From: Vicinamibacterales bacterium | GTDB taxonomy: Bacteria > Acidobacteriota > Vicinamibacteria > Vicinamibacterales > UBA2999 | Assembly (NCBI GenBank): GCA_040081715.1 | Contig: JBEBFY010000003.1 | Coordinates: forward strand, 6,524-70,523 | DNA: 64,000 bases | Direction of reading: 5' to 3' | Shown: positions 3,396 to 61,396 of the stretch, one piece after another | Layout: every line of letters begins with the position of its first letter | How positions within the stretch are numbered: the stretch's first letter is position 1 | The notes under the pieces: generated by a model | Told to the model about the DNA's origin: nothing | Seen by the model: the letters and a program-made list of their open reading frames with translations, nothing else | The model's database searches: none | Program-made: the position numbers and the translations under genes

Positions 3396-3564
3396 TGAGT
3401 TCTCCTCCGCAGATCGAATAGTGCACAAATCCTACCACATGGATTCCGGTGTGTTTTCCTCATGATTTGACGTGAAAGTCGGTGCCCGCGCTTCACCGTT
3501 TCGATTAGGCGGTACAAATGACACACTGACCAGGAGGACACCAGCGTCGGGGGAGCGACAACGG

Positions 3565-7764: not shown

Positions 7765-7841
7765 CGGGGCGTGGCTCAGCCTGGTAGAGCACTCGGTTCG
7801 GGACCGAGGGGTCGCTGGTTCGAATCCAGTCGCCCCGACCA
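7765..7841 (+). tRNA. tRNA-Pro (anticodon CGG), CCA encoded
   Basis: Hand-folded cloverleaf. Acceptor CGGGGCG/CGCCCCG, D arm GCTC/GAGC, anticodon arm CTCGG-TTCGGGA-CCGAG, T arm GCTGG-TTCGAAT-CCAGT. 77 nt. Confidence 0.9.
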
Positions 7842-41695: not shown

Positions 41696-41771
41696 GGCCA
41701 GGTAGCTCAGTCGGTAGAGCACGTGACTGAAAATCACGGTGTCGGGGGTTCAATTCCCTCCCTGGCCACCA
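41696..41771 (+). tRNA. tRNA-Phe (anticodon GAA), CCA encoded
   Basis: Hand-folded cloverleaf. Acceptor GGCCAGG/CCTGGCC, anticodon arm CGTGA-CTGAAAA-TCACG, T arm GGGGG-TTCAATT-CCCTC. 76 nt. Confidence 0.9.
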
Positions 41772-46498: not shown

Positions 46499-46711
46499 CT
46501 AGTCGTCCGACGGCATGTCGCCGATCGCACCGAACATGAAGATGATGGTGCCTGTCACGCCGAGGGCGATGCCGGCCGGCAGCATCACGAGTGTCACGCC
46601 GAAGCCGAGCCCGATCAGGGCGATGACCAGCCCGAGCAGCATGATGAACGACCGCAGGACGCCGTGCTCGGCTGCTTCGATCCAGTGGGCGAGAGAATGG
46701 TGGGTGCGCAT
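46499..46711 (-). CDS. small two-TM membrane protein
   Basis: About 70 aa starting at MRTHHSLAHWIEAAEHG, followed by two hydrophobic helices. A GGAGG Shine-Dalgarno lies 7 nt upstream and a sigma-54 promoter match about 34 nt upstream. Confidence 0.55.
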   Translation of the reverse strand: MRTHHSLAHWIEAAEHGVLRSFIMLLGLVIALIGLGFGVTLVMLPAGIALGVTGTIIFMFGAIGDMPSDD

Positions 46712-46744: not shown

Positions 46745-46759
46745 GCAAGCTCGATGCCA
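46745..46759 (-). promoter_or_regulatory. sigma-54 promoter match TGGCAT-N5-TTGC
   Basis: Minus-strand TGGCATCGAGCTTGC(T). The GG and GC are spaced as in the -24/-12 consensus. It lies 34 nt upstream of the ATG at 46711. Confidence 0.6.
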
Positions 46760-46915
46760 CATCGGAACCCGCTGGACTTTCAAGGAAGACACCATGGATT
46801 CCGCCTTCCGCCGGGGCCTGGCCGCGGAATAATTCTGGTCCATGGGGATCTATTGACCGGTGATAGGTCTGGCACGGTGGCCATGATCCGTGGCCGAGCG
46901 GGGAGATCGGCAGCC

Positions 46916-47428
46916 TCAGGATGCCGGTGCTGGCACCGGAGCACGCAGGGGCAGGGTCGCTTCAACGGCCTCTTTCGCCTTGCCCACGGTGAGGACCGGA
47001 CACGGTGCGGACCGCACGACCTGTTCGGCCACGCTGCCCATGAGCAGGTGCGCAATTCCCGTGCGGCCGTGCGTGCCCATGACGATCAGATCGGTCCCAC
47101 ATTCCTCCGCGAGTTCGTGAATCGCGGCAGCTGGCCGGCCAGGCCGCACGTGAACCATGGCGGTCACGCCGAGACGCTCAAAGGCGCCGGCCATGGCGTC
47201 GAGGCGATGCCGCGCACTCACCGAAAGGCCTTCGAGCAGGGCCCGCCGATCGGGGCGCTCCGTGTCCCCCTCCCAGGCGCCGAGCGCAAAGGGATCCTCC
47301 ACGACGTGCAACAGATCCACCCGGGCGCCGAACCGGGTACCGAAGGTCGTGGCGTAGCCCACCGCCCTGTCGGACTGTGGACTGAAGTCCACGGGAACGA
47401 GAATCCTGGTGACCGCAGTCGTCGTCAT
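46916..47428 (-). CDS. universal stress protein (UspA family)
   Basis: RILVPVDFSPQSDRAVGYA start and C-terminal GTHGRTGIAHLLMGSVAEQVVRSAPCPVLTV motif. Confidence 0.85.
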   Translation of the reverse strand: MTTTAVTRILVPVDFSPQSDRAVGYATTFGTRFGARVDLLHVVEDPFALGAWEGDTERPDRRALLEGLSVSARHRLDAMAGAFERLGVTAMVHVRPGRPAAAIHELAEECGTDLIVMGTHGRTGIAHLLMGSVAEQVVRSAPCPVLTVGKAKEAVEATLPLRAPVPAPAS

Positions 47429-47485
47429 ACGCGCTCCTCAGCCTTCGGCATACGGACCTGGGCACCACTCGCCCCAAGAGACAGA

Positions 47486-47500
47486 GCGAAGCGCGTGCCA
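47486..47500 (-). promoter_or_regulatory. sigma-54 promoter match TGGCAC-N5-TCGC
   Basis: Minus-strand TGGCACGCGCTTCGC(T), 58 nt upstream of the Usp ATG. It is 14 of 15 identical to the element at 52221-52235. Confidence 0.55.
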
Positions 47501-47567
47501 AGGGCCAAGGCCCGCACGGCAGGTGCATCCTGACATGACAGCCCCGTGAGGCCGAAGAAGTGCGCCC

Positions 47568-48965
47568 TCATCCCCGAGGCGCTTCATCGGCCGGCAGTGA
47601 CACGGTGGCGGTCGTGCCACCAGACGGTGGGCATACGACCGTGAGGGTGCCGCCGTGCATCTCGACCGAGCGCTTCGCGATGGCCAGTCCCAGGCCTCCG
47701 CCGCGCGACTTTGTGGTGAAGAACGGCTCGAAGACCCGTTCGCGGACATCCTCGGGGATGCCGGGCCCGGTGTCGGCGACGGCGATGCGCACCCACGACG
47801 CATCGGCGGTGATGGTTGCCGTCAGCGAGCCCCGCCCCCCCATGGCCTGGGCGGCGTTGATGAACAGGTTCGAGAACACCGCCCGAAGCATCACGCGGTC
47901 AGCGTGGAGGGCCACCTGGCCTCCGGCGATGCGGCAGGCGATGCCCGCCCCGGCCGGATCCCGGAGCAGAAGGACCTGTGCCTCCTCAACCAGCGCGCGC
48001 ACGTCGAGCAATTGCATCTGCGGGGGCCGTGGGCGGGCGAATAGCAGCAGGTCCGAGATCAGGTCGTTCAGTGCATCGGCGCGTTCGATGATTTCGTGCA
48101 TCACCGCCGCCTCCGGGTCGCCAGCCGGCCGGCGGCTCATCAGGACCTGCAGGGCGGCCTTGATCCCAGCCAGGGGGTTCTTGACCTCGTGCGCCACCAT
48201 GGCGGCGAGTTGTCCCACGCGGGCCAGGGCTTCCTGGTTTCGCAGGCGCTCCTCGCCGAGCTTGCGCTCCGTGATATCGCTTCTGATAGCGATGTACTGG
48301 TAGGGCCTGCCACGCGCATCGAGAAACGGGACGATCGTGGTGTCAACCCAGTAGTGGGCGCCGTCCTTGGCCTTGTTCCGGATTTCGCCGTGCCAGATCT
48401 GCCCACGGCCGATCGTCTGCCAGAGCTCCTTCATGAAGGTCTTGGAGTGCAGCCCAGAATTGATCAGGCGATGGTCCTGCCCGATGAGTTCCTCGCGGGA
48501 ATACTGGGAGATCTGGCAGAACTTGTCGTTCACGAACGTGATCCGGCCGGCCACGTCGGTGGTTGCCACGATGGCCGCCTCGTCGAGGGCGTGTCGCAGC
48601 TCTTCCAGCCGCGCCACCTGGGTCGCGGAATGCGCCTCGCTCCGCTTCAGGCGCACCAGCAGGCCCGCGCTGAGCCAGAAGAGCAGCACCGCCAGTGGCT
48701 GGTTGACGAAGGCGGATGGTGGAGGCATGGCCGTTATCCGAATGGCCGTATCGGCCAGGACGAGTACCGTGCTGGCGCCGGCAGCCACGACGGGATAGCG
48801 CAGGGAATTGATGCCGAGCCCGAGCAGAATCACCAGGATGTAGGCGACCCCCACGTTGTAGTCCAGGGGGAGGCGCACATCGATGAGGAAGATCAGCGTC
48901 GCGAGTGCGGCGCCGACGGCCACCAGCGTCCGGCTGGTGGCGGAGAGTCGGGCGGACGTGGGCAT
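47568..48965 (-). CDS. membrane-anchored PAS-domain sensor histidine kinase (NtrB-like)
   Basis: N-terminal multi-TM region, a PAS domain (GRITFVNDKFCQISQYSREELIGQDHRLINSG), HisKA AHEVKNPLAGI and HATPase DTGPGIP...GGGLGLAI. Confidence 0.85.
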   Translation of the reverse strand: MPTSARLSATSRTLVAVGAALATLIFLIDVRLPLDYNVGVAYILVILLGLGINSLRYPVVAAGASTVLVLADTAIRITAMPPPSAFVNQPLAVLLFWLSAGLLVRLKRSEAHSATQVARLEELRHALDEAAIVATTDVAGRITFVNDKFCQISQYSREELIGQDHRLINSGLHSKTFMKELWQTIGRGQIWHGEIRNKAKDGAHYWVDTTIVPFLDARGRPYQYIAIRSDITERKLGEERLRNQEALARVGQLAAMVAHEVKNPLAGIKAALQVLMSRRPAGDPEAAVMHEIIERADALNDLISDLLLFARPRPPQMQLLDVRALVEEAQVLLLRDPAGAGIACRIAGGQVALHADRVMLRAVFSNLFINAAQAMGGRGSLTATITADASWVRIAVADTGPGIPEDVRERVFEPFFTTKSRGGGLGLAIAKRSVEMHGGTLTVVCPPSGGTTATVSLPADEAPRG

Positions 48966-49118
48966 CGGAATCTCTTATAACCGGAAAACGGAGCACTCAT
49001 GACCAGCGGACGGGCGCGGAACTTGCTGTGCACTGTAGAAACCCCCGCAATTGAGGAGCCGAGCGTGAAATCTTCCACGTCCGTCGCGGATAAGTTCGCG
49101 CCGCCGTACTATGGGGCC

Positions 49119-50483
49119 ATGGCGAATGCCACGGTACTGGTTGTCGATGACGAAGCGTTGGTCCGCTGGTCGCTGCGCGAACGGCTGCTGCGGGATCGTT
49201 TCAACGTGCTCGAAGCCGGCACGGCCGCGTCGGCGCTGGAACAGGTCGGCGAGGCGGTGGACCTTATCCTGCTGGACTACCGGCTCCCGGACTCGGACGG
49301 ACTGGTGGTGCTGAGGAAGGTCAAGGAGCTCTACCCCGACACGCTCGTCATTCTGATGACCGCCCATTCCACGGTCGAGAACGCCGTGGAGGCGATGAAG
49401 CTGGGGGCCTTCCACTACATCAACAAGCCGTTCAACGTGGACGAGGTGGCCCTGCTGGTCGAGAAGGCGCTCGAAACCAGCCATCTGCGCCGGGAGGTGA
49501 AGGCGCTCCGAAGCTCAGCCGGGCGGGAATTCAGCTTCGATGCGATCGTGGGCACGTCCCCGAGCATGGAGGCCATCAAGGCGCTGCTGCGCCGCGTGGC
49601 GGTGAGCCCGGCCTCGACGGTGCTGCTGACGGGCGAGACGGGCACGGGCAAGGATCTTGTGGCCAAGTCCATTCACTACAACAGTGATCGGGCGACCCGG
49701 GCCTTCGTCAACATCACCTGCTCGGCGCTGCCAGAACACCTTCTCGAAAGTGAGTTGTTCGGCCACGAGCGCGGGGCGTTCACCGATGCCCGGACGCAGA
49801 AGCGGGGCCTGTTCGAAATAGCCGATGGCGGCACGGTGTTCCTCGACGAAATCGGCGAGATGACGCCGGCGCTCCAGGCCAAGCTCCTGCGCTTTCTGGA
49901 GGAGAAGACGTTCAAGCGCGTCGGCGGGCTGCAGGACATCCGCGTGGACGTGCGCGTGATTGCCGCCACGCACCGCGACCTCGATCAGGGCGTTAAGGAG
50001 GGCAGGTTCCGCGAGGACCTCTTCTACCGGCTCCAGGTGATGCCCATCCACCTGCCGTCGCTGCGGGAGCGCAAGGGGGACGTGCCGCTGCTGGCCAACT
50101 ACTACGTGGACACCTATAACCGCGAGTTCAAGAAGCACGTGAAGGGCATCACGCCGGAGACCATGCCGCTGCTCGAGAGTTACGGGTGGCCCGGCAATAT
50201 CCGTGAGCTGCGCAACGCCGTCGAGCGGGCGATGCTGTTGACCGAACGCGACTGGCTCAGGCCCGAGGACTTCACCACGCTCACGCGATCCGTCGGTGCG
50301 CCCTCCCGGTTCCAGCTCCCTCCCGACGGCATCAACCTGGAGGATGTGGAGCGGCAACTGCTCGTGCAGGCGCTGGAGCGATCCAACGGCAATCAGACGC
50401 ATGCGGGGCAGATGCTGGGGATCAACCGCGATCAGGTGCGCTATCGCATCGAGAAGTTCGGCCTCCAGATTTCTCAGAAATAA
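49119..50483 (+). CDS. sigma-54-dependent response regulator (NtrC family enhancer-binding protein)
   Basis: REC domain (VLVVDDE...LILLDYRLPDSDG), AAA+ domain (GETGTGKD; ESELFGHERGAFTDA, a GAFTGA-type loop) and a C-terminal Fis-type HTH (NQTHAGQMLGINRDQVRYRIEKF). Confidence 0.9.
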   Translation: MANATVLVVDDEALVRWSLRERLLRDRFNVLEAGTAASALEQVGEAVDLILLDYRLPDSDGLVVLRKVKELYPDTLVILMTAHSTVENAVEAMKLGAFHYINKPFNVDEVALLVEKALETSHLRREVKALRSSAGREFSFDAIVGTSPSMEAIKALLRRVAVSPASTVLLTGETGTGKDLVAKSIHYNSDRATRAFVNITCSALPEHLLESELFGHERGAFTDARTQKRGLFEIADGGTVFLDEIGEMTPALQAKLLRFLEEKTFKRVGGLQDIRVDVRVIAATHRDLDQGVKEGRFREDLFYRLQVMPIHLPSLRERKGDVPLLANYYVDTYNREFKKHVKGITPETMPLLESYGWPGNIRELRNAVERAMLLTERDWLRPEDFTTLTRSVGAPSRFQLPPDGINLEDVERQLLVQALERSNGNQTHAGQMLGINRDQVRYRIEKFGLQISQK

Positions 50484-50531
50484 CCCTCGCCGATCGCGGA
50501 ATCCTCGCCGGCTCTGCCGTCGCCTCTCTCA

Positions 50532-50553
50532 GGCCGCCCGCACACGGGCGGCC
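50532..50553 (+). terminator. stem-loop after the activator gene (9 bp, no U-tract)
   Basis: GGCCGCCCG-ACAC-type loop-CGGGCGGCC, located between the activator stop and the Hsp20 promoter. Confidence 0.4.
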
Positions 50554-50572
50554 GAATCCACCGTGTTCTGTT

Positions 50573-50587
50573 CGGCATCCTTGTTGC
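50573..50587 (+). promoter_or_regulatory. sigma-54 promoter match CGGCAT-N5-TTGC
   Basis: CGGCATCCTTGTTGC(G) with correct GG-N10-GC spacing, 31 nt upstream of the Hsp20 ATG. GAGGAGG Shine-Dalgarno downstream. Confidence 0.55.
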
Positions 50588-50617
50588 GTGTTCACAGGGC
50601 GATTGAGGAGGTGCCCC

Positions 50618-51121
50618 ATGAGAGAGGCGCAGGATCTGATGGTTGTCGAACCCGGTTCCCTCATGCACCGGATGTTCAGGGACTTTGATCGGTTCTTCGA
50701 ACACCGTCGTGGTTTCCCGTTTGTCCGTCCTGGCAAGGGGTTCGGCGAGTTCCCGTGGTCGCCGGACCTCGAGCTGGCCGAGCGCGAGCATCGTCTCCAT
50801 GTGAAGGTCGATCTGCCGGGTCTGAAGAAGGAGGAGATCTCGGTTGAGTTGGACGACGGCATGCTGACGATCTCGGGTGAGCGGACGCACGAGGTGGAGA
50901 AGGAGAGGTCGGCGTGGACGCGCTCCGAGCGGACCTACGGCGCGTTCAGCCGGTCGATTCCCGTGCCGGACGGCGTCAAGGGCGCGGATGTGCAGGCAAC
51001 CTTCACTGACGGCGTGCTGGAGGTGACGGTGCCGCTCCCTGAGAAGCGGGACACGGGCGGGTCGAAGATCGCCATCGGGGAAGGCAGTGCCGGCGCTGGC
51101 GCCGCGAAATCGGCCGCCTGA
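50618..51121 (+). CDS. Hsp20/alpha-crystallin family small heat-shock protein
   Basis: Alpha-crystallin domain (HRLHVKVDLPGLKKEEISVELDDGMLTISGER...FSRSIPVPDGV...ATFTDGVLEVTVP). Confidence 0.9.
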   Translation: MREAQDLMVVEPGSLMHRMFRDFDRFFEHRRGFPFVRPGKGFGEFPWSPDLELAEREHRLHVKVDLPGLKKEEISVELDDGMLTISGERTHEVEKERSAWTRSERTYGAFSRSIPVPDGVKGADVQATFTDGVLEVTVPLPEKRDTGGSKIAIGEGSAGAGAAKSAA

Positions 51122-51136
51122 ACCCACCCGATGGTC

Positions 51137-51168
51137 CTGGGGCCGGCGATGCCAGTCGCCGGCCCCAG
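51137..51168. terminator. 13-bp perfect stem-loop between the convergent Hsp20 and DHOD-like genes
   Basis: CTGGGGCCGGCGA-TGCCAG-TCGCCGGCCCCAG. Confidence 0.55.
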
Positions 51169-51202
51169 ATGTGTACGGGGCGCGGCGGGCATGTGACCGG
51201 AC

Positions 51203-52192
51203 TCAGCGCCAGCTTCGCAGGGTCTGCAGGTAGGTGGCGCGCTCGAAGGCCAACGGATCGTCCATGCGGACCAGGCTGGCGCGTCCGCGGGCGTCCTCCA
51301 GACGTGCGACCGCGTGCTCCTCCATCCAGCGGGCGAGACCCGCCCGCATCGTAGCGACATAGCCGGGTCCGTGCCTGAGCAGGGCCGACACCAACTGCAC
51401 GACGTCCGCACCGGCCAGCAACGCCTTGATGCCGTCGTCCGGCGTTGCCACGCCGCCTGTGAGCGCCAGTTGCGCCTTGGTGCGCCCGAACAATGCCGCC
51501 ACCCACCGGAGCCGTAGCAGCAGTTCCTGGCTGGTGGACAGATCCACATGGACGACCGGCGTGGCCGTGGCGATATCGATGTCCGTCTGGTAGACGCGGT
51601 TAAAGAGCACCAGCGCTCCGGCGCCCGCGTCGCTGAGCCGGTTGGCCATGTTGGCGAAGGCGGTGAAGAAGGGCGTCACTTTGACGGCGATCGGAATCGT
51701 CAGCAGGCGCCTGGCGTCGCGGACCATCCGCACCCACTCGTCCTCCACAACGGCACTTGACAGTTTCGGGTCGGCTACTAGTTGATACAGGTTCAGCTCC
51801 AGGGCGTCTGCTCCTGCCCGTTCGACATCCCTGGCAAATGTCAGCCACGACTCGGCCGTGCCCCCGTTGAGCGAGGCGATCACGGGAATTCCGAGGGCGC
51901 GCTTGGCCTCCGCGACGTGCGCCAGATACGCGTCCGGCGTGGCGGCGAAGGCCTTGGAGGTCGGGTAGTGCGTGAGCGTGGCGGCGAAGCGGGGGTCGTG
52001 CGGATCCATGTGGCCAACGCGGCGCTCGCGGGCGTCGGCCACCTGTTCCTCGAACAGGGAGTGCAGCACCACGGCCGCGCAGCCCGCGTCCTCCAGTTGC
52101 CTCAGCGTGTCGATCCGCTGGGAGAGGGGCGATGCACCCGCGATGAACGGGTGGGGGAGCGGGAGTCCCAGATACGTGGTCGTCGTGTTCAT
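51203..52192 (-). CDS. dihydroorotate dehydrogenase-like (class 1 DHOD fold) protein
   Basis: TYLGLPLPHPFIAGASPLS start and TIM-barrel flavoenzyme pattern (IASLNG, VKVTPFF, LTGGVATPDDGIKALLAGADVVQLVSALL). Confidence 0.75.
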   Translation of the reverse strand: MNTTTTYLGLPLPHPFIAGASPLSQRIDTLRQLEDAGCAAVVLHSLFEEQVADARERRVGHMDPHDPRFAATLTHYPTSKAFAATPDAYLAHVAEAKRALGIPVIASLNGGTAESWLTFARDVERAGADALELNLYQLVADPKLSSAVVEDEWVRMVRDARRLLTIPIAVKVTPFFTAFANMANRLSDAGAGALVLFNRVYQTDIDIATATPVVHVDLSTSQELLLRLRWVAALFGRTKAQLALTGGVATPDDGIKALLAGADVVQLVSALLRHGPGYVATMRAGLARWMEEHAVARLEDARGRASLVRMDDPLAFERATYLQTLRSWR

Positions 52193-52220
52193 GCGTGCGT
52201 CTCCGTTCCCCTACCGCGTC

Positions 52221-52235
52221 GCGAAGCCCGTGCCA
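52221..52235 (-). promoter_or_regulatory. sigma-54 promoter match TGGCAC-N5-TCGC
   Basis: Minus-strand TGGCACGGGCTTCGC(G), 29 nt upstream of the DHOD-like ATG. Confidence 0.55.
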
Positions 52236-52374
52236 CAGCTCGTGGGGCGTGACCGGCACGCCGTCCACGTGGACGATAGCCCGGCAGCATGGATTTTTCA
52301 TCTCGGTTGTCGGATATTCCCCGTCACCCGGCAGGATCACGCCTGTAGCGCGAGCCACCCACGCCGAAGGAGAA

Positions 52375-52389
52375 TGGCAACGCGCTTGC
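52375..52389 (+). promoter_or_regulatory. sigma-54 promoter match TGGCAA-N5-TTGC
   Basis: TGGCAACGCGCTTGC(G), 27 nt upstream of the tandem-Usp ATG at 52416, with a GGAGG Shine-Dalgarno in between. This is the first gene of the cytochrome cluster strand. Confidence 0.6.
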
Positions 52390-52415: not shown

Positions 52416-53312
52416 ATGACCGCGATGCAACGTGTGCTCTGTCCCGTGGATTTCTCGGAGGGCTGCCGTCACGGAATTGACGTCGCCGTGGCGCTCGCGC
52501 GTGGCGCCGGCGGCCGTCTGACCGCCCTTCATGTACTGCAACCGGTTCCGGCGATGGTGCCGTTCACGGATCCGCTCTCGCTCCCGCCGGGGCTGTGGAC
52601 GCCTGAGGACATCGAATCGGTGCGCAAGGACGTCCTGACGTTCGTCGCCGGAGAGGGGGCCGGTAGCGGCGTGCCAGTGGAGGCGCTGTGCGTGGAGGGC
52701 AATCCGGCCCGCGAGATTCTGCGGAGCGCCGGCGAGCTGCCCGCCGATCTGATCGTGATGGGGACGCACGGCCGGTCCGGCTTCAAGCGGTTGCTGCTTG
52801 GCTCCGTGACAGAGAAAGTGCTCCGGCACGCGACGTGTCCCGTGCTGAGCGTGCCGCCCCGCGCGCCGGACGCCATGCCCTTCGGCACCAAGGTGTTCTC
52901 GAACATCGTTGCGGCCGTGGACTTCTCGGATAGTTCCCAGGCCGGGCTGAAGATTGCGGCGGCGCTCGCCCGCCAGCACGGGGCGACGCTTACGGCGGTG
53001 CACATCGTCGAGCCGGTGCCCACCTACGCGGACTCGGGCATTCCCGGGCTGGACGCCGACATTGAACGCGAGGCGGCGCACGGGTATCTCAAGGGTCTGC
53101 TCGAACGGGTGGCACCAGGGCTGGCGGTGCGCGAAGTGGTGATGATCGGCCACGCAGGCACTGGCGTCCTGCAGGTGGCCGAGAGTCAGCACGCGGACCT
53201 GATCGTGGCCGGCGTGCACGGCCGGAACGCGATGGACCTGATGTTCTTCGGTTCGACCACGAACCGGCTCGTGCGCGAGGCCGCCTGTCCGGTGCTGACA
53301 GTCAGGGGATGA
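52416..53312 (+). CDS. tandem-domain universal stress protein
   Basis: Two Usp domains, each ending in a GxHGRxG...GS(V/T)(T/N)...V...A.CPVL(S/T)V motif. Confidence 0.85.
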   Translation: MTAMQRVLCPVDFSEGCRHGIDVAVALARGAGGRLTALHVLQPVPAMVPFTDPLSLPPGLWTPEDIESVRKDVLTFVAGEGAGSGVPVEALCVEGNPAREILRSAGELPADLIVMGTHGRSGFKRLLLGSVTEKVLRHATCPVLSVPPRAPDAMPFGTKVFSNIVAAVDFSDSSQAGLKIAAALARQHGATLTAVHIVEPVPTYADSGIPGLDADIEREAAHGYLKGLLERVAPGLAVREVVMIGHAGTGVLQVAESQHADLIVAGVHGRNAMDLMFFGSTTNRLVREAACPVLTVRG

Positions 53313-53452
53313 GGCGTGCCTCAGAATGGACCATGGGGACCGTGAGGTGGATTTATTATGAACGGAAATGCCGCCTGCCTTGCCATACTAGGGACCGCCT
53401 ACTCGTGGTGATGGGGTGGAGACAGACCGAGCGGAGTGCAGGGAGGCTGCAG

Positions 53453-54262
53453 ATGCGAGTGCGGGTTGTGATGATTCTGGCGGTGGCGTTGGTGGGGCTG
53501 ATGGCACCTGCCGCGATGGCGCAGTCGAGTAAGTGCGCTGATTGCCACTTTGCCAATCCTGATGCGCCACGCCGTGGCCACTTGAGCGACTGGGACCGGT
53601 CGGCACACGGCCGCCAGAACATCGGCTGCGAGCGGTGCCACGGGGGCAATGCCACGAGCTTCGAGAAGCTGGTGGCCCACAAGGGCATCATCGGATCCGG
53701 CGATCGCAAGAGTGCGGTGCACCGCGCCAACCTCCCGACGACCTGCGGCACTTGCCATGCGGGCCAGTTGATGGAGTTCCAGAAGTCGAAGCACTTTCAA
53801 CTCCTGAAGGCCGACGACAAGCGGGGCCCGACCTGCGCGACCTGCCATGAGGACGTGGGCGACACGCTGCTGTCGCCGAAGTCGCTGGAGGCCCAGTGCA
53901 ACTCCTGCCACGGACCCGGCAAGACGGCACCGCGGCCCGAGCGCGCGAAGAACGCGAGGGCGATGCTGGAAAGTGTGCGTGAAGCCAGGAACCTGCTGAA
54001 GCAGGGGCGTGACCTCATCAAGCAGGTCAAAGACCCACAGCGCAAGGCGCGGCTGACGCAGGAAGCCGAGATGGTGGCGCTGGAGTTGAAGTTCGCGGTT
54101 GAAGCCGGCCACTCGTTTGTCTACGACGGACTGGAGCAGCGCGTGTCGCGGGCCCGGACGAAGCTGACGGCTCTGTTTGACGGGTTGACCAACCCGGGTG
54201 CGGCGGCGAAGCCGGTCAAGGGCGTGCCCCCCCTGCCGGGCAGCACGCAGGCGCGCCGGTAG
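53453..54262 (+). CDS. periplasmic pentaheme c-type cytochrome with helical C-terminal tail
   Basis: Signal peptide MRVRVVMILAVALVGLMAPAAMA and five CxxCH motifs (CADCH, CERCH, CGTCH, CATCH, CNSCH). GGGAGG Shine-Dalgarno before the ATG at 53453. Confidence 0.8.
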   Translation: MRVRVVMILAVALVGLMAPAAMAQSSKCADCHFANPDAPRRGHLSDWDRSAHGRQNIGCERCHGGNATSFEKLVAHKGIIGSGDRKSAVHRANLPTTCGTCHAGQLMEFQKSKHFQLLKADDKRGPTCATCHEDVGDTLLSPKSLEAQCNSCHGPGKTAPRPERAKNARAMLESVREARNLLKQGRDLIKQVKDPQRKARLTQEAEMVALELKFAVEAGHSFVYDGLEQRVSRARTKLTALFDGLTNPGAAAKPVKGVPPLPGSTQARR

Positions 54263-54301
54263 GACGGTCCTGGGGTGCAGGTTGACCGCGGGAGGTGTGC
54301 G

Positions 54302-54712
54302 ATGTGCTCGCGGATTGTGAAGGTGTTCGCGGCCGGGTGTCTGTGCGTGGTCGTGGCCATGCCGTCATCCGGCCAGACTCCCGCTTTGAAGGCGCTAATG
54401 CGGGAGAAGCTGTCGCACTCGCAGCAGTTGCTGGATGCCGTGGTGACCAGCCGCTGGGTGCAGCTGGAAGCGCATGCGGTGGCGCTCCGGAAGTTGACCG
54501 GGCGGCCTGCCTGGATGGTGCTGCAGTCGCCTGAATACGCGCGGCAGACCGCGATATTCACCCGCGCGCTGGATGATCTGGTCGAGGCGGCCCGCCGCAA
54601 GGATCTTGAAGCCACGCCGGTTGCCTACACCGCCATGACGATGAGTTGCGTCCAGTGCCACCGCCAGGTGGCCCGCATGCGGATGGCCGACTCTCCGGCT
54701 TCCACCCGCTGA
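54302..54712 (+). CDS. class II (cytochrome c'-like, four-helix-bundle type) c-type cytochrome
   Basis: Signal peptide, a helical body and a single CxxCH near the C-terminus (MSCVQCHRQV), as in class II cytochromes c. GGAGG Shine-Dalgarno. Confidence 0.6.
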   Translation: MCSRIVKVFAAGCLCVVVAMPSSGQTPALKALMREKLSHSQQLLDAVVTSRWVQLEAHAVALRKLTGRPAWMVLQSPEYARQTAIFTRALDDLVEAARRKDLEATPVAYTAMTMSCVQCHRQVARMRMADSPASTR

Positions 54713-54812
54713 CAGGGCCGCGCCATCGCCTGACAACTGCCTCGCGGGCGGCCATTCCGGCCACGCCCCGGTATGGTCTCCGGCTTGCATTGCACTCCTC
54801 GCAGGAGGGGCG

Positions 54813-55037
54813 ATGCGGATTGTGCGATATCTCAAGTCGGCGCCGGGGCGCATCGCGCGCGGGTTCCTGGGGCTGGGACTCATCGGGGTCGGTGCTCGAA
54901 ACCAGACCGCGACAGGCCTGTTCCTGCTGATGCTGGGGCTGGTGCCGCTGTGCACCGCGATCGCCAATATCTGCCTCCTGGAAGACCTGCTGGCCGCCTG
55001 GGGCAATCGCCGGGACCGCGCGCACCAGCGCACATAG
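54813..55037 (+). CDS. DUF2892 (YgaP-like) small membrane protein
   Basis: GRIARGFLGLGLIGVG...GLVPLCTAIANICLL two-helix pattern typical of DUF2892. Confidence 0.6.
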   Translation: MRIVRYLKSAPGRIARGFLGLGLIGVGARNQTATGLFLLMLGLVPLCTAIANICLLEDLLAAWGNRRDRAHQRT

Positions 55038-55046
55038 GAGGACGTC

Positions 55047-55790
55047 ATGTTCGAGTCCATTAGCGAAGGACATTGCGCAATACCGCACGGAGACTCCGTG
55101 CCGCTGCTGCTGTCGTCCCTCCTGCACGGTGCCGGTTTGGCCGCAGTCATCCTGGTGCCGCTGTTGCTGGCGAACGGTCAGGTGCCCACGTTGCCATCGA
55201 TGATGGCGTTTGTCGCGCGAGAGCCCGCGGCACCACCACCACCGCCGCCGCCGGCGGCTCCAGCCTCCGCGGCAAAGGACGCTGCGGTCCGGCCGACGCC
55301 GTCCTCCAATCCCAGTGCGGCGCCTCTTGAGGCTCCTGCGGAGATCACGCCTGAGCCCGCGCGGGCTGGGTCTGACGACGGCGTGGAGGGCGGTGTGGCA
55401 GGTGGCGTGCTTGGCGGCGTAGTCGGTGGAATCCCGACGGCAGCACCGGCGCCACCACCGCCACCACCGGCGCCGGCACCGGTGGTGCCACGGGCACCGA
55501 TTCGGGTGGGTGGCGAGCTGCAGGTGCCCGCGCTTCTGAAGCGCGTCGGACCTGACTACCCGGAACTGGCTGTACGGGCGCAGGTCGAAGGCGTCGTCAT
55601 TCTCGAGGCGGTTGTCGGCGAGAGCGGGCGCGTGGAGGATGTCCGGGTCCTGCGTTCGATCCCACTGCTCGACAACGCCGCCAAGGCGGCCGTGCGGCAA
55701 TGGGAGTACTCGCCGCTGCTCCTGAACGGCAAGGCGGAGCGATTCATCGTGACGGTGACCGTCAGCTTCCAATTGAAACGGCAGAGTTGA
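55047..55790 (+). CDS. TonB-family energy transducer
   Basis: N-terminal TM, a Pro-rich spacer (PPPPPPPAAP... PPPPPPAPAP) and a C-terminal TonB domain (PDYPELAVRAQVEGVVILEAVVGESGRVEDVRVLRS...AAKAAVRQWEYSP). Confidence 0.85.
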   Translation: MFESISEGHCAIPHGDSVPLLLSSLLHGAGLAAVILVPLLLANGQVPTLPSMMAFVAREPAAPPPPPPPAAPASAAKDAAVRPTPSSNPSAAPLEAPAEITPEPARAGSDDGVEGGVAGGVLGGVVGGIPTAAPAPPPPPPAPAPVVPRAPIRVGGELQVPALLKRVGPDYPELAVRAQVEGVVILEAVVGESGRVEDVRVLRSIPLLDNAAKAAVRQWEYSPLLLNGKAERFIVTVTVSFQLKRQS

Positions 55791-55907
55791 TGTGGGGCTC
55801 CAGACAACGAATGGTCTGCGGGATAGTTCGTGGGCGCGGGAGTTCCTTCGAGTCTGTCCTTATATGCCAGGCGACGTTCCGAAGATAATGACGGGGTGGG
55901 AGGGTAC

Positions 55908-56240
55908 ATGGTTCGAGTGATGGGGATGCTGGCGGTTGTGGGTTGCGTGCTGCTGCCCGGAGTTGCGCGGGCGGAGACGCCTGCCGAGAAGGGTGCCACG
56001 GTGTACGGAGCCCAGAAGTGCGGGATGTGTCACTCCGTGGCCGGCAAGGGCAATCCGAAGGGAGTGCTCGACGGCGTGGGCAAGAAGCTGAAGGCCGATG
56101 AGATCAGGGAGTGGATCGTAGATGCGCCGGCCATGATGGCGAAGGCGAAGGCCACCCGCAAGCCGGCGATGAAGGCCTACGCGAATCTCTCGAAAGGTGA
56201 CCTCGAGGCGCTGGTGGTCTACCTGCAGAGCCTGAAGTAG
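55908..56240 (+). CDS. small class I monoheme c-type cytochrome
   Basis: Signal peptide, a CGMCH motif and a distal Met region (KPAMKAY). About 110 aa. Confidence 0.75.
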   Translation: MVRVMGMLAVVGCVLLPGVARAETPAEKGATVYGAQKCGMCHSVAGKGNPKGVLDGVGKKLKADEIREWIVDAPAMMAKAKATRKPAMKAYANLSKGDLEALVVYLQSLK

Positions 56241-56267
56241 GCGGCCCGGGTTCCCGGGGGATCGTCC

Positions 56268-57629
56268 GTGCGCTCGTTCCTGCAGGCGTTTGTCAGAAAT
56301 GGTCTATCCCTCGTGGGGACCGCGATCGCGACGGCGATGGCGGCGCTCTTTGTCGCACTGGCCCTGCTCGACCTCGCGGGGTATCTCACCAACCCCTATC
56401 TCGGCCTGCTGCTTTTTGTGGCCATCCCGACGGTGTTCGTTGCCGGGCTGCTGCTGATCCCGCTCGGCCTCTGGCGCGAGCGGCGTCGGCGCGCCCGGAC
56501 GCCCGAAGCGGCGACGGGCGAGTGGCCCGTGTTCGACCTCCGCATCGCGCGCCAGCGCGCGATCGCCGTGGCAGTGCTGACCCTGACGGTGGTCAATCTC
56601 GTGATTGTGTCGATGGCGGCGTACGGGGGCGTGCACTACATGGAGACGCGGGAGTTCTGCGGCCAGGTGTGCCACGAGACGATGGAGCCGCAGTATGTGG
56701 CGCATCAGACCGGCCCGCACTCCCGCGTCGCGTGCGTGTCGTGTCACGTCGGGTCGGGTGCGGGGGCGGTCGCACGGTCCAAGTTCAAGGGGCTGCGGCA
56801 GTTGGTGCTTGTAGCGACGGACCGGGCACCTCGGCCTGTGGCCCCGCCGCTGCAGGTCATGCGGCCCGCAGTGGAGACGTGCGAACAGTGCCACTGGCCG
56901 GAGAAGTTTCACGGCGACAGACAGAAAGTTGTGCGCGAGTACGGCGACGACCAGGCGAGCACCGAGACGGGGACCACGCTGACGCTGCACCTCGGCGGCG
57001 GCAGCGCCGTACTCGGCATCGGCACCGGCATCCACTGGCACATGAACCTTGACAATGTCGTCGAATTTGTCGCCACCGACTCCACCCGGCAGTCGATTCC
57101 CTATGTGCGGTTGACCAACCGGGAGGGCCGCGTGAAGGAGTACGTGGCGGAAGGGGCGGACCGGACGACTCTTGCGGCACAGCCCATGCATCGGATGGAC
57201 TGCGTGGACTGCCACAACCGTCCCGCGCATGCCTTCAGCCCCTCGCCGGCACGAGCGGTCAACGAGGCGATGGCTCAGGGGCGGGTGCCGCGTGACCTTC
57301 CGTTCGCCCGCCGTGAGGTGCTGGCAGCAGTGAGCGACGGGTACCCCTCGCGCGATTCGGCGCGCGCGGGCATCGCGCGAAGGCTTGAGGGGATCTACCG
57401 GGCGCAGGGCATCAGCGCCGACCGCACGGCTCGTCTGGTGGCTGGGGCGCAGGACGTGTATGCCCGCAACGTGTTCCCGGCCATGCGAGTGAGTTGGGGC
57501 ACGTATCCGAACAACATTGGCCATATGGATGCGCCGGGGTGCTTCCGTTGCCACGACGATAGCCACAAGGCGGGGGACGGCAGCGTCCTCACACAGGACT
57601 GCGAAACCTGCCACACGGCGCCACAGTAA
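56268..57629 (+). CDS. membrane-anchored NapC/NirT-like multiheme cytochrome c (candidate quinol dehydrogenase)
   Basis: About 3 N-terminal TM helices, then a NapC-like EFCGQVCHETM (a CX3CH variant) plus five CxxCH motifs (CVSCH, CEQCH, CVDCH, CFRCH, CETCH). Confidence 0.7.
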   Translation: MRSFLQAFVRNGLSLVGTAIATAMAALFVALALLDLAGYLTNPYLGLLLFVAIPTVFVAGLLLIPLGLWRERRRRARTPEAATGEWPVFDLRIARQRAIAVAVLTLTVVNLVIVSMAAYGGVHYMETREFCGQVCHETMEPQYVAHQTGPHSRVACVSCHVGSGAGAVARSKFKGLRQLVLVATDRAPRPVAPPLQVMRPAVETCEQCHWPEKFHGDRQKVVREYGDDQASTETGTTLTLHLGGGSAVLGIGTGIHWHMNLDNVVEFVATDSTRQSIPYVRLTNREGRVKEYVAEGADRTTLAAQPMHRMDCVDCHNRPAHAFSPSPARAVNEAMAQGRVPRDLPFARREVLAAVSDGYPSRDSARAGIARRLEGIYRAQGISADRTARLVAGAQDVYARNVFPAMRVSWGTYPNNIGHMDAPGCFRCHDDSHKAGDGSVLTQDCETCHTAPQ

Positions 57630-57639
57630 CGAGGAGACC

Positions 57640-58629
57640 ATGGGGAATCACAAATCGAGTCACCAATCCAGCAACGCGGCGGCGCGCGCGTACTGGCCCG
57701 CGATCCTGGTGGTCGCGCTGGGCGTGACATGGGCCGGCACCGTGATGCTCGCCGCCGCCCCGGCCCGGCCGCGCCAGGTGAGCGCGACGCCTGCAGCGAC
57801 TGCACCCGCGGCCGCGCAGGGGGCCTATGCGGGGCAGGCCGCGTGCCTGGGTTGCCACGCCGAAATGGACTACAAAGGGACGCTGCACGGGCTCGCGTCG
57901 CGTCCGCGCACGCCGGCGGCGACGCACGGCTGCGAAAGCTGCCATGGGCCGGGGCAGGCCCACGCCGAGTCCGGCGAGGCGTCACTGATCCGCAACCCGA
58001 AGAAGCAGACGCCGCAGCAGGCGAGCGAGGCCTGCGTGAGCTGCCACAACCGCGGCACGCACGCGCTGTGGACCGGCAGCCAGCATGACCAGCGCAACGT
58101 CGGCTGCATCACGTGTCACAGCGTGCACACCCCAAAGGGGCCCGCGCAGCTCAAGGCGGCGAGCCAGAAGGAACTGTGCGCGACGTGCCACCGGCCGGTG
58201 ACCAACAAGCAGCACCGGTTCAGCCACATGCCCGTGCGCGAAGGCAAGCTGGAGTGTTCCTCCTGCCACAACACGCACGGCTCCACCAACCAGTCGCTGC
58301 TCAAGACCGGCACCACCGTGGATGAGTCCTGCACCAGCTGCCACGCGGAGAAACGCGGGCCGTACCTCTGGGAGCATGCGCCGGTGGCCAATGCCTGCGT
58401 CACCTGCCATGACCCGCATGGGTCCAACAATGAACGGATGCTGGCGGCGAAGGTGCCCTTCCTGTGCCAGCGGTGCCACGTGACGTCGCGCCATCCGCCA
58501 ACCGTGTACGACGGCTTCGTGCGGAACAACTCGACCAACGCCAACAAGATCATCGGCCGAGGCTGCGTCGTGTGCCACTCGCAGATTCACGGGTCGAATG
58601 CCCCGTCGGGCAAGTCGTTCCTGCGCTAG
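57640..58629 (+). CDS. DmsE/MtrA-family periplasmic decaheme c-type cytochrome
   Basis: Ten CxxCH motifs in 329 aa, at the spacing typical of MtrA/DmsE/PioA/MtoA. The C-terminal CVVCHSQIHGSNAPSGKSFLR matches the family ending. GAGGAG Shine-Dalgarno. Confidence 0.85.
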   Translation: MGNHKSSHQSSNAAARAYWPAILVVALGVTWAGTVMLAAAPARPRQVSATPAATAPAAAQGAYAGQAACLGCHAEMDYKGTLHGLASRPRTPAATHGCESCHGPGQAHAESGEASLIRNPKKQTPQQASEACVSCHNRGTHALWTGSQHDQRNVGCITCHSVHTPKGPAQLKAASQKELCATCHRPVTNKQHRFSHMPVREGKLECSSCHNTHGSTNQSLLKTGTTVDESCTSCHAEKRGPYLWEHAPVANACVTCHDPHGSNNERMLAAKVPFLCQRCHVTSRHPPTVYDGFVRNNSTNANKIIGRGCVVCHSQIHGSNAPSGKSFLR

Positions 58630-58637
58630 GGGAGATC

Positions 58638-60938: not shown

Positions 60939-60940
60939 GC

Positions 60941-61396
60941 GTGGCCGACCCGACTGAACCCGATTCGCACGCCGGCGATCGGCGCAGGTTCCTGGATGCC
61001 GTGCTGACATTCGGGTTCGTCTCGACGGCCGTGGCGGTGGCGTACCCGGTGGCCCGCTACATGGTTCCACCGGCCAGCGAGGAGCCCTCGACGGTCAGCG
61101 CGGTGGCGGCCAAGGACGCCGCCATGCCGCCCAACAGCGGCGTCGTCTTCAAGTTCGGCAACAAGCCAGGCATCCTGGTGCGAGACCACGCCGGCGACCT
61201 GCACGCCTTCGACGCCGTCTGCCCGCACCTCGGCTGCACCGTTCAATACCGCCCGGAGACGTCGGATATCTGGTGCGCCTGTCACAATGCGGTGTTCGAC
61301 GTGGGCGGCAACATTGTCTCGGGCCCGCCGCCTCGCCCGCTGGAACGTCTCACGGTGAACGTGAGCGGCGAGGACCTGGTGGTCAGCCGTGGCTAG
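60941..61396 (+). CDS. Rieske [2Fe-2S] subunit of a cytochrome bc-type complex
   Basis: Twin-arginine signal ([10 protein letters not shown]) and Rieske boxes CPHLGC and CACHNAVF. It starts 2 nt after the barrel gene stop. Confidence 0.85.

Follow-up and report, generated by a model that had tools for sequence, protein, structure and literature searches.

The stretch of DNA analysed here, a 64 kb window from a soil acidobacterium (Vicinamibacterales), contains a histidine kinase gene and, divergently encoded, the gene of an NtrC-family sigma-54 activator, surrounded mainly by genes for stress and redox proteins; the genes of the cluster are:

46499–46711, minus strand: 70-aa membrane protein (open reading frame with a GGAGG Shine-Dalgarno sequence)
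46916–47428, minus strand: single-domain universal stress protein, Usp1 (Pfam Usp, E = 3.6e-35)
47568–48965, minus strand: membrane-anchored histidine kinase with an FAD-type PAS domain (Pfam PAS, HisKA, HATPase_c)
49119–50483, plus strand: NtrC-family sigma-54 activator with REC, AAA+ (Sigma54_activat, GAFTDA loop) and Fis-type helix-turn-helix (HTH_8) domains (Pfam)
50618–51121, plus strand: small heat-shock protein, Hsp20/alpha-crystallin (Pfam HSP20, E = 1.6e-23)
51203–52192, minus strand: dihydroorotate-dehydrogenase-like (DHOD-like) flavoprotein (NCBIfam NF005741, 383 bits, over the 303 cut-off)
52416–54712, plus strand: probable operon head of tandem Usp (52416–53312), multiheme cytochrome (53309–54262) and cytochrome c'-like protein (54275–54712) (Pfam)

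The identities that an initial annotation had given to the Usp, Hsp20, DHOD-like, tandem Usp, kinase and activator genes were confirmed by Pfam and NCBIfam, and tblastn likewise confirmed that the window encodes a single sigma-54 activator. The 70-aa membrane protein had no Pfam or NCBIfam match. In the operon head, the tandem Usp stop overlaps the multiheme cytochrome start by 4 nt, and a 12-nt gap then leads to the cytochrome c'-like gene.

The closest solved structure to the activator is Aquifex NtrC1 (4L4U), and its recognition helix, NRDQ(V/I)RYRIEKF, is near-invariant across 12 aligned orthologues. The GAFTDA loop is a variant listed as activation-compatible and is found in DVU2106, an activator whose targets have been assigned (PMC4641369). 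The PAS domain of the kinase is about 60% identical to MmoS PAS-A (3EWK; E = 1.5e-54, 147 bits, 110 residues) and about 40% to the Aer PAS, and also matches NifL. When the PAS alignment was read against PMC9668731, all four residues of the flavin pocket (T, H, N and R, corresponding to Aer T18, H53, N85 and R115), which are common to these sensors, proved to be kept.

Five GG-N10-GC elements of the -24/-12 type had been reported in the window, and all are present, exact to the letter; a sixth, weaker one is uncertain:

46745–46759, minus strand: TGGCATCGAGCTTGC, 33 nt upstream of the small membrane protein start; top sigma-54 matrix match in the window with both matrices
47486–47500, minus strand: TGGCACGCGCTTCGC, 57 nt upstream of Usp1; rank 2 with the heuristic matrix
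50573–50587, plus strand: CGGCATCCTTGTTGC, 30 nt upstream of Hsp20; weak matrix score (9.2 bits, rank 27)
52221–52235, minus strand: TGGCACGGGCTTCGC, 28 nt upstream of the DHOD-like gene
52375–52389, plus strand: TGGCAACGCGCTTGC, 26 nt upstream of tandem Usp; rank 2 with the lineage-derived matrix
49012–49027, plus strand: GGGCGCGGAACTTGCT, weak sigma-54-like element (9.5 bits) upstream of the activator gene, uncertain

As claimed, each of the five lies shortly upstream of a start codon (distances are counted from the C of the -12 GC), and all five starts have a GGAGG-like Shine-Dalgarno sequence. The -12 region reads TTCGC instead of TTGC in two promoters. The initial annotation had expected a couple of TGGCA-N6-TxGC matches per window by chance; our estimate of 2.88 agrees, but the five observed are not significant by number alone, at least five having occurred in 14 of 100 shuffles, and one of the five TGGCA-N6-TNGC matches (42936) falls within a receptor gene. 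The non-random positioning claimed alongside was borne out. With the heuristic matrix the five elements rank 1, 2, 8, 10 and 27 in the window, and by score alone three of the five promoters do not stand above several intragenic matches; among matches of at least 9 bits, seven fell in the 150-nt zones upstream of 50 genes against 1.4 expected (P ~5e-4), six of them at successive gene starts in the 46.5–52.4 kb interval. The elements of Hsp20 orthologues are strong (16.0 bits in locus L001 and 14.5 bits in L006), each with site pairs. No rpoN gene was found among the Vicinamibacterales sequences examined.

Expectation-maximisation on sequences upstream of the promoters yielded a 16-bp palindrome, CGCGGAA-N2-TTCCGCG, with the core GGAA-N4-TTCC and usually two copies 20–21 bp apart. 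It lies about 50–65 nt upstream of the -24 element in four of the five promoters, those of the small membrane protein, Hsp20, the DHOD-like gene and tandem Usp. The sites, listed without strand, are:

46823–46858: candidate enhancer, strong site CGCGGAATAATTCTGG (46823–46838) with a weak partner 20 bp off (46843–46858); 14.1 and 4.3 bits
49064–49100: tandem pair CGTGAAATCTTCCACG and CGCGGATAAGTTCGCG, 21 bp apart, candidate autoregulatory operator; 15.1 and 10.9 bits
50474–50510: tandem pair TCAGAAATAACCCTCG and CGCGGAATCCTCGCCG, 21 bp apart, candidate Hsp20 enhancer; 11.4 and 10.0 bits
52288–52323: tandem pair CATGGATTTTTCATCT and TGTCGGATATTCCCCG, 20 bp apart; 7.7 and 15.7 bits

The strong site at 46823–46838 is the promoter-proximal member of its pair, 63 nt upstream of the -24 element. 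The Hsp20 pair spans the activator stop codon and stops 62 nt short of the -24 element of Hsp20, a spacing that is identical in the L001 Hsp20 orthologue, and the pair at 52288–52323 is common to two divergent promoters, lying 52 nt from one and 51 nt from the other. The pair that ends 18 nt before the activator start codon was not among the motif-discovery sequences; it overlaps the -35/spacer region of a TACTAT -10-like box at 49104–49109. With a matrix trained on other genomes only, four of the five best window matches fell in the roughly 0.9 kb of intergenic DNA of the cluster: the pair at 52288–52323 gave rank 1, the pair before the activator ranks 2 and 5, and the site at 46823–46838 rank 4. 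The same matrix found two pairs in the window against 0.11 in shuffles. Single palindrome sites showed no excess in the window at low thresholds (23 of at least 8 bits against 24.7 in shuffles). The Usp1 promoter has no GGAA-N4-TTCC site above 0 bits in 47495–47740 and none within 200 nt, and is therefore not assignable to this activator.

The association of palindrome and activator was also seen in an independent set of 17 orthologous metagenome loci, at most 85% identical in nucleotides to the training loci. Pairs occurred there at 20.5 per 100 kb (16 in 78 kb), against 0.45 per 100 kb (2 in 449 kb) in 63 loci with other, non-orthologous activators, a roughly 46-fold contrast of which part could reflect lineage rather than activator because most control loci belong to other phyla. 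Eleven of the 16 pairs had a correctly oriented sigma-54-like element 5–140 nt away, where 1.15 were expected (P ~8e-10). In relatives, a pair with a -24/-12 element precedes genes for Usp, tandem Usp, Hsp20, multiheme cytochrome, cytochrome c' and cytochrome c, as well as for a TonB_C (TonB-like) protein, a NifU-like protein and the activator itself; the multiheme cytochrome and cytochrome c' orthologues with a site pair and -24/-12 element of their own are in L004 and L005. The order of element, site pair and activator start codon recurs in L001 and L003, the synteny of kinase, activator and Usp is conserved, and at least 12 other genomes keep promoter elements ahead of the orthologous genes. 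In several relatives two activator paralogues stand in tandem, with almost identical helix-turn-helix regions, so that a site there is not assignable to one paralogue.

The architecture recalls known systems. ZraSR-zraP of E. coli, NtrBC and AtoSC pair the same type of REC/AAA+/Fis-type helix-turn-helix activator with a histidine kinase and likewise have palindromic enhancer sites upstream of -24/-12 promoters; at zraP/zraSR two divergent sigma-54 promoters share one enhancer region, as predicted at 52.2–52.4 kb here. The best NCBIfam matches of our pair are AtoC and AtoS, but the activator scores far under every equivalog cut-off (AtoC 462 against 714 bits, ZraR 387 against 760, NtrC 423 against 559) and is orthologous to no named system. 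In place of a periplasmic metal sensor or PII-controlled kinase, sensing here would fall to a cytoplasmic FAD-type PAS domain; the predicted targets, genes for Usp, Hsp20, flavoprotein and cytochromes, differ, as does the predicted binding motif, GGAA-N4-TTCC. The output genes also differ from those of MmoS/MmoQ, Aer and NifL. MmoS, like the kinase here, serves as sensor in a two-component system (PMC9668731), but is large and multidomain, whereas our kinase combines a single PAS domain, with predicted flavin binding, and an N-terminal membrane anchor.

In content, the set resembles the DosS/DosT-DosR hypoxia (dormancy) regulon of mycobacteria, which has several Usp genes and, as here, encodes its two-component redox/oxygen sensor inside its own regulon. 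The DosR regulon also includes alpha-crystallin/Hsp20. It counts six USPs (PMC2914252). DosR, however, is of the NarL/LuxR type, with sigma-70-type promoters and haem-GAF sensor kinases, whereas sigma-54 promoters, an AAA+ activator and an FAD-PAS kinase are predicted here, and the likeness is functional, not homologous. The same logic of conserved -24/-12 elements and activator-specific palindromes emerged from comparative genomics of the Desulfovibrio vulgaris regulome (PMC4641369) and from a cross-phylum survey, whose predicted sigma-54 targets in other phyla include genes for Usp (COG0589) and small heat-shock proteins of the IbpA type, and which makes no mention of Acidobacteria (PMC12316311). 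Our literature searches found no earlier description of the activator, palindrome motif or regulon; the locus appears as a coherent, previously undescribed case of an ordinary type of bacterial gene switch.

Taken together, the comparative data support a real and conserved sigma-54 regulon, predicted from sequence around the kinase/activator pair, which is probably redox- or hypoxia-responsive. The full chain from FAD-PAS kinase through NtrC-family activator and tandem palindromes to the -24/-12 promoters of stress and redox genes is one we regard as likely. The kinase would sense redox state or oxygen limitation, the presumed inducing signal, through its Aer/MmoS-type FAD-binding PAS domain and phosphorylate the activator. 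The latter would bind pairs of the 16-bp palindrome (consensus CGCGGAAWWTTCCGCG), in which the two copies are separated by about two turns of the helix and which are centred roughly 60–90 nt upstream of the -24 elements, form an ATPase ring and remodel sigma-54 RNA polymerase at the promoters, on which transcription of the cluster is predicted to depend. The genes induced in this way would be those of the small membrane protein, Hsp20 and the DHOD-like flavoprotein, together with the operon that tandem Usp heads and that continues with multiheme cytochrome and cytochrome c'. At 52.2–52.4 kb a single site pair would act on both divergent promoters. The site pair abutting the activator start codon probably serves autoregulation. 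The proposal that one two-component system drives a Usp, sHsp and flavoenzyme regulon is supported for the small membrane protein, Hsp20, DHOD-like and tandem Usp genes, which share a palindrome that is tied to activator orthologues and kept with -24/-12 elements in relatives; Usp1 is not assignable to this system.

That the GG-N10-GC elements are chance matches in GC-rich DNA, with transcription from ordinary sigma-70-type promoters, seems very improbable. Their raw count is unremarkable, similar-scoring intragenic matches are present and such matches are widespread even in E. coli (PMC4591121), but chance accounts poorly for the positional enrichment, the retention upstream of orthologous genes and the co-occurrence with palindrome pairs, and a consensus scan of 46–64 kb found no sigma-70-like promoter. 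Somewhat less remote, though still unlikely, is that the promoters are real and that activators encoded elsewhere drive some or all of them, the palindrome belonging to another co-occurring regulator such as a paralogous activator or stand-alone receiver protein. The bare Usp1 promoter, the second tandem paralogue and stand-alone REC genes in relatives' loci, and a view of the genome that spans 64 kb fit such a reading; against it, the window has one activator, the palindrome follows the orthologue group of that activator, the spacing of the sites from the -24/-12 elements is that of classic enhancers, and a pair lies at the activator's own gene.

How far a regulon driven by this activator would extend into the cytochrome genes is more evenly balanced. 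The suggestion that it takes in an extracellular electron-transfer cluster is supported at the tandem Usp head, with its promoter and palindrome pair; for the whole porin-cytochrome cluster the evidence is same-strand, short-gap gene order and synteny. There is a substantial chance, a little short of even, that the transcript comprises tandem Usp, the first multiheme cytochrome and cytochrome c' only, and that the genes from about 54.8 kb onward, for porin-cytochrome and Rieske/cytochrome b proteins, are transcribed separately and lie outside the regulon. A 100-nt gap (54713–54812) follows cytochrome c' and holds a sigma-54-like element without palindrome (54774–54789) ahead of a YgaP-like small ORF, and MtrB/PioB was not found adjoining the activator in any orthologous locus. 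Read-through from the tandem Usp promoter into the porin-cytochrome genes would, on the other hand, suit the run from 52416 to 63823, in which all genes share one strand, no gap exceeds 100 nt and the gaps hold no terminator-like site. In L081, L082 and L084, homologues of cytochrome c, of two more multiheme cytochromes (56268–57629 and 57640–58629) and of cytochrome b stand beside activator-Usp, and the strongest site pair of all lies at the cytochrome c gene in L084.

The gene identities that the initial annotation had proposed for the cluster at 46.5-52.4 kb held when compared with Pfam and NCBIfam, and the protein encoded at 49119-50483 is, as had been claimed, the sole sigma-54 AAA+ activator in the window. 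The five GG-N10-GC elements described around it were all present in the sequence exactly as written.

Genes of the cluster and sigma-54-type elements
46499-46711, minus: 70-aa membrane protein without a family match
46759-46745, minus: element of the small membrane protein gene
46916-47428, minus: single-domain Usp (Usp1)
47500-47486, minus: element of the Usp1 gene
47568-48965, minus: PAS-HisKA-HATPase kinase
49119-50483, plus: activator with REC, sigma-54 AAA+ and HTH_8 domains and a GAFTDA loop
50573-50587, plus: element of the Hsp20 gene
50618-51121, plus: Hsp20
51203-52192, minus: dihydroorotate-dehydrogenase-like (DHOD-like) protein, NF005741
52235-52221, minus: element of the DHOD-like gene
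52375-52389, plus: element of the tandem Usp gene
52416-53312, plus: tandem Usp
53309-54262, plus: first multiheme cytochrome, its start overlapping the tandem Usp stop by 4 nt

GG and GC are exactly 10 nt apart in all five elements, TGGCA is found in four of them, and the -12 box reads TTCGC in two and TTGC in three. Counted from the C of the -12 GC, the start codons lie 33, 57, 30, 28 and 26 nt downstream (in the order small membrane protein, Usp1, Hsp20, DHOD-like protein and tandem Usp), each with a GGAGG-like ribosome-binding site. Such -24/-12 elements are also kept upstream of the orthologous genes of relatives, in the orientation of the gene. From this spacing, composition and placement, we predict that the five elements are promoters of the sigma-54 (-24/-12) class.

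How far these elements rise above background depended on the measure used. The initial annotation had estimated that a couple of TGGCA-N6-TNGC matches would occur by chance in the window, which agrees with the 2.88 expected, but the count of five is not thereby significant: 14 of 100 shuffles also reached five, and the raw count was dropped as evidence. One of these five matches, at 42936, falls within a receptor gene. Scored with a heuristic sigma-54 matrix, whose frequencies only approximate the published consensus, the five elements ranked 1, 2, 8, 10 and 27 in the window; score alone was also set aside as a ranking, as only two of the five stood out and a matrix derived from the relatives did no better. 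The signal of the elements is their position. Matches of at least 9 bits in the 150-nt zones upstream of 50 genes numbered 7 against ~1.4 expected (P ~5e-4), and six of these seven are held by consecutive gene starts at 46.5-52.4 kb. No sigma-54 promoter was seen by eye for the kinase gene in 48966-49063, and a search for RpoN-box peptides had its sole match in an Anaerolineales locus (L010), with none in the window or the Vicinamibacterales loci examined.

Expectation-maximisation motif discovery in the 200 nt upstream of the promoters returned a 16-bp palindrome, CGCGGAATATTCCGCG, with the core GGAA-N4-TTCC. Its copies mostly come in twos, 18-23 bp and chiefly 20-21 bp apart, equal to two helical turns, and the -24 TGG lies 40-86 nt downstream of the end of the nearer copy.

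Palindrome sites in the cluster
46823-46838: one site of 14.1 bits plus a weak partner, 5' of the gene for the small membrane protein
49064-49100: pair, 15.1 and 10.9 bits, with the activator start codon 18 nt after its end
50474-50510: pair, 11.4 and 10.0 bits, upstream of Hsp20
52288-52323: pair, 7.7 and 15.7 bits, between the divergent DHOD-like and tandem-Usp promoters

The pair at 52288-52323 is placed symmetrically, 52 nt from the DHOD-like promoter and 51 nt from the tandem-Usp promoter, and the region 49064-49100 was outside the motif training set. The Usp1 promoter had no site above 0 bits within ~240 nt. Other routes to a shared upstream motif were less productive. A generic inverted-repeat search of the intergenic regions was of no use, since palindromes this short and degenerate escape it. 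The motif CCACCGTG/CACGGTGG precedes three promoters, yet it is over-represented throughout the window, and the expectation-maximisation motif was preferred: the 8-mer CCACCGTG has 13 copies against 5.0 expected (0 of 100 shuffles reached 13), including those at 46873-46880, 47601-47608 and 50558-50565, with three copies upstream of cluster promoters, and at 46870-46883 CCACCGTG/CACGGTGG sits inside a TGGCAC-like sequence.

The palindrome was then evaluated with a matrix retrained on the loci of the six closest relatives alone (L001-L006; consensus CGCGGAAATTTCCGCG), the window being left out. The sites at 52308, 49064, 46823 and 49085 ranked 1st, 2nd, 4th and 5th in the window, so that, out of 64,000 positions, four of the top five matches are confined to ~0.9 kb of intergenic DNA in the cluster. 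Two site pairs were found in the window against 0.11 in shuffles, with the remainder of the window serving as same-genome control. We further used 17 orthologous loci from soil metagenomes (L081-L096 and L103), non-redundant with the training loci at no more than 85% nucleotide identity. These held 16 pairs in 78 kb (20.5 per 100 kb), compared to 2 in 449 kb (0.45 per 100 kb) for 63 metagenome loci of non-orthologous activators and 7 in 810 kb for 74 genome loci of such activators, a contrast in which lineage and activator identity are partly confounded because the control loci belong mostly to other phyla. In this independent set, a sigma-54-like element in the correct orientation lay 5-140 nt from 11 of the 16 pairs, where 1.15 were expected (P ~8e-10). 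Being dyad-symmetric, paired, upstream of promoters and specific to the orthologue group, the palindrome pairs are candidate enhancers for the sigma-54 activator.

The activator itself has the architecture of the NtrC family (Response_reg, 9.4e-25; Sigma54_activat, 2.2e-68; AAA_lid_14; HTH_8, 1.1e-13), and its nearest solved structure is Aquifex NtrC1 (4L4U, E = 2.7e-103). It reached none of the NCBIfam equivalog cut-offs (AtoC 462 vs 714, NtrC 423 vs 559, ZraR 387 vs 760, NtrX 370 vs 600 and GlrR 333 vs 763). The acidic pocket and phospho-acceptor Asp of the receiver are intact, with D10, D11, D53 and K103 invariant in the orthologue alignment, as is the Walker A motif (GETGTGKD). The loop predicted to contact sigma-54 reads GAFTDA in 10 of 12 orthologues and GAFTGA in two; GAFTDA is among the loop variants that retain activation and is present in DVU2106, which has assigned targets (PMC4641369). 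The recognition helix, NRDQ(V/I)RYRIEKF, is near-invariant across the 12 orthologues, which fits a conserved binding site.

The single PAS domain of the kinase (residues ~115-245) matched the FAD-binding PAS-A of MmoS (3EWK) with E = 1.5e-54 and ~60% identity, and also Aer (8DIK, E = 8.5e-22) and PAS1 of NifL (2GJ3, 1.5e-12). In Aer/MmoS the flavin-pocket residues are T18/T103, H53/H132, N85/N164 and R115/R195 (PMC9668731), and the kinase carries the identical T, H, N and R. Together, these matches and the four identical residues indicate that the kinase is most likely a flavin-based redox sensor.

The resulting model is that a redox or oxygen-limitation signal would be sensed by the FAD-PAS kinase, which would phosphorylate the activator; the latter would then assemble on the tandem palindromes and activate sigma-54 polymerase at four promoters. 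The earlier proposal that one two-component system drives a regulon of Usp, small heat-shock protein and flavoenzyme is supported for the four promoters with palindromes, but not for that of Usp1, which has no site. As for the activator gene, a TACTAT -10-like box (49104-49109) lies 9 nt before the ATG, and the 49064-49100 pair would overlap its -35 and spacer, an arrangement that hints at negative autoregulation. In many orthologous loci (L001, L002, L004, L005, L081, L082, L084 and L085) the activator start codon is preceded, at 7-12 nt, by a TATACT-like box, and such proximity suggests that the activator transcripts are leaderless or near-leaderless and made from a housekeeping-type promoter. 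In two other loci, L083 and L096, the site pair precedes a sigma-54 promoter, which in turn precedes the activator gene; this canonical layout points to positive autoregulation there.

The closest activator orthologues (61-75% identity, L001-L006) all come from Vicinamibacterales or Acidobacteriota metagenome-assembled genomes. Synteny is kept in that the kinase gene is adjacent to or divergent from that of the activator, with at least one Usp gene next door. Frequent followers are Hsp20, the DHOD-like gene, a TonB_C protein and homologues of several window cytochromes (the first multiheme cytochrome, cytochrome c', cytochrome c, cytochrome b and two further multiheme cytochromes), and sigma-54-like elements lie directly 5' of Usp, tandem Usp, Hsp20, multiheme cytochrome, cytochrome c', cytochrome c and TonB_C genes. 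Across the relatives, the putative regulon comprises several Usp genes, Hsp20, a NifU-like protein and c-type cytochromes; the DHOD-like flavoprotein is a putative member in the window only, and CBS-like, Zn-alcohol-dehydrogenase-like and twin-arginine-signal proteins are putative members by inspection of their first residues only. Many relatives (L001, L002, L003, L081-L083, L085 and L088) have two paralogous activators in tandem or an additional stand-alone receiver gene; the tandem paralogues are 72-76% identical to the query and have nearly the same helix-turn-helix, and the window has one activator.

How far the predicted control extends into the cytochrome genes can be considered gene by gene. 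On the plus strand, the first multiheme cytochrome is followed by a cytochrome c'-like gene, a YgaP-like ORF, TonB_C, cytochrome c, two multiheme cytochromes, an MtrB/PioB porin, a Rieske protein, cytochrome b and another multiheme cytochrome. The first multiheme cytochrome overlaps the tandem Usp by 4 nt and is separated from cytochrome c' by 12 nt, so both are almost certainly transcribed from the tandem-Usp promoter. After cytochrome c' comes a 100-nt gap with a sigma-54-like sequence, TGGTCTCCGGCTTGCA (54774-54789, plus), 24 nt before the ATG of the YgaP-like ORF (54813-55037, plus; 74 aa with a transmembrane domain, Pfam E = 1.8e-07), a gene absent from the initial annotation. We did not count TGGTCTCCGGCTTGCA as a sixth promoter because it has no palindrome upstream. 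Likewise, the intergenic region between TonB and cytochrome c contains a weak palindrome-like pair at 55817-55850 (9.0 and 8.3 bits, 18 bp apart), which was left uncounted because no GG-N10-GC lies nearby; the cytochrome c start is probably the ATG at 55908, not 55830. Beyond the 100-nt gap, the genes remain on the plus strand and are never more than 39 nt apart, and the spaces between the cytochrome-cluster genes showed nothing resembling a terminator. Among the relatives' loci, homologues of cytochrome c, two further multiheme cytochromes and cytochrome b adjoin the activator, and MtrB/PioB was not found adjoining it. Co-regulation of the whole cytochrome/porin module is plausible. At 58638-62513 (plus), the MtrB/PioB-type porin is directly followed by Rieske (60941-61396) and cytochrome b (61389-62513), and then by a multiheme cytochrome; this contiguity joins a porin-cytochrome module to a bc-type complex.

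The locus is best described as a predicted NtrC-type two-component sigma-54 regulon, whose predicted binding motif is new and whose redox input is probably flavin-based; our literature search for a prior description found nothing on Acidobacteria, on this activator or on its motif. Sigma-54-linked Usp and IbpA genes have been predicted in other phyla (PMC12316311), and the DosR regulon includes six USPs (PMC2914252). The likeness to DosR lies in regulon content alone, of the hypoxia/dormancy type: DosR systems have a NarL/LuxR regulator, haem-GAF kinases and sigma-70-type promoters, unlike the NtrC-type AAA+ regulator and FAD-type PAS kinase found here. A tentative and rather doubtful reading is that Vicinamibacterales possess a sigma-54-wired, flavin-sensed dormancy-like programme (Usp, small heat-shock protein, flavoenzyme and periplasmic cytochromes), a functional analogue of DosR that is here fused to the porin-cytochrome/Rieske/cytochrome b genes. 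If this were true, a fall in redox potential would induce stress protection at the same time as an alternative outlet for electrons, and if the cytochrome/porin genes were co-induced, stress or dormancy proteins would be linked to extracellular electron transfer in Acidobacteria.

Vicinamibacterales are an abundant acidobacterial order in soil, and to our knowledge their response to fluctuating oxygen is poorly understood. The locus offers a concrete regulatory unit, with a likely flavin redox sensor, an activator with a predicted motif and defined target promoters. Combined with the promoter, the palindrome motif could serve to predict the whole regulon in any member genome of the order and aid in reading soil metatranscriptomes across oxic-anoxic transitions. 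Because the mechanism would be an unsurprising, standard NtrC-type sigma-54 switch, the value lies in soil microbial physiology and ecology and not in a new principle.

Several further features of the DNA deserve mention. A hairpin with a perfect 9-bp stem and a loop of 4 nt, GGCCGCCCG-CACA-CGGGCGGCC (50538-50559), separates the activator stop from the Hsp20 -24 element and might act as an insulator or as a terminator lacking a T-tract; the convergent Hsp20/DHOD-like gap (~51139-51166) has a hairpin of similar form, GGGGCCGGCG-N8-CGCCGGCCCC. An Rfam scan of the window detected two tRNAs only (7765-7838 and 41696-41768, both plus), and the cluster gave no match to any RNA family. The stretch from the DHOD-like -24 element to the enhancer pair contains an inverted repeat GGCGTG-N5-CACGCC (52246-52262) and, immediately after it, a perfect 12-bp palindrome, GTCCACGTGGAC (52263-52274), present as a single copy in the window; a second regulator may bind in the region 52246-52274. 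Finally, a sigma-54-like element, TGGTAGGATTTGTGCA (3422-3437, minus), lies 27 nt 5' of a cbb3-type cytochrome c gene (2958-3395, minus); it ranks 3 in the window by the lineage-derived matrix, lacks a GGAA-N4-TTCC site and may be a sigma-54 promoter of another regulon.
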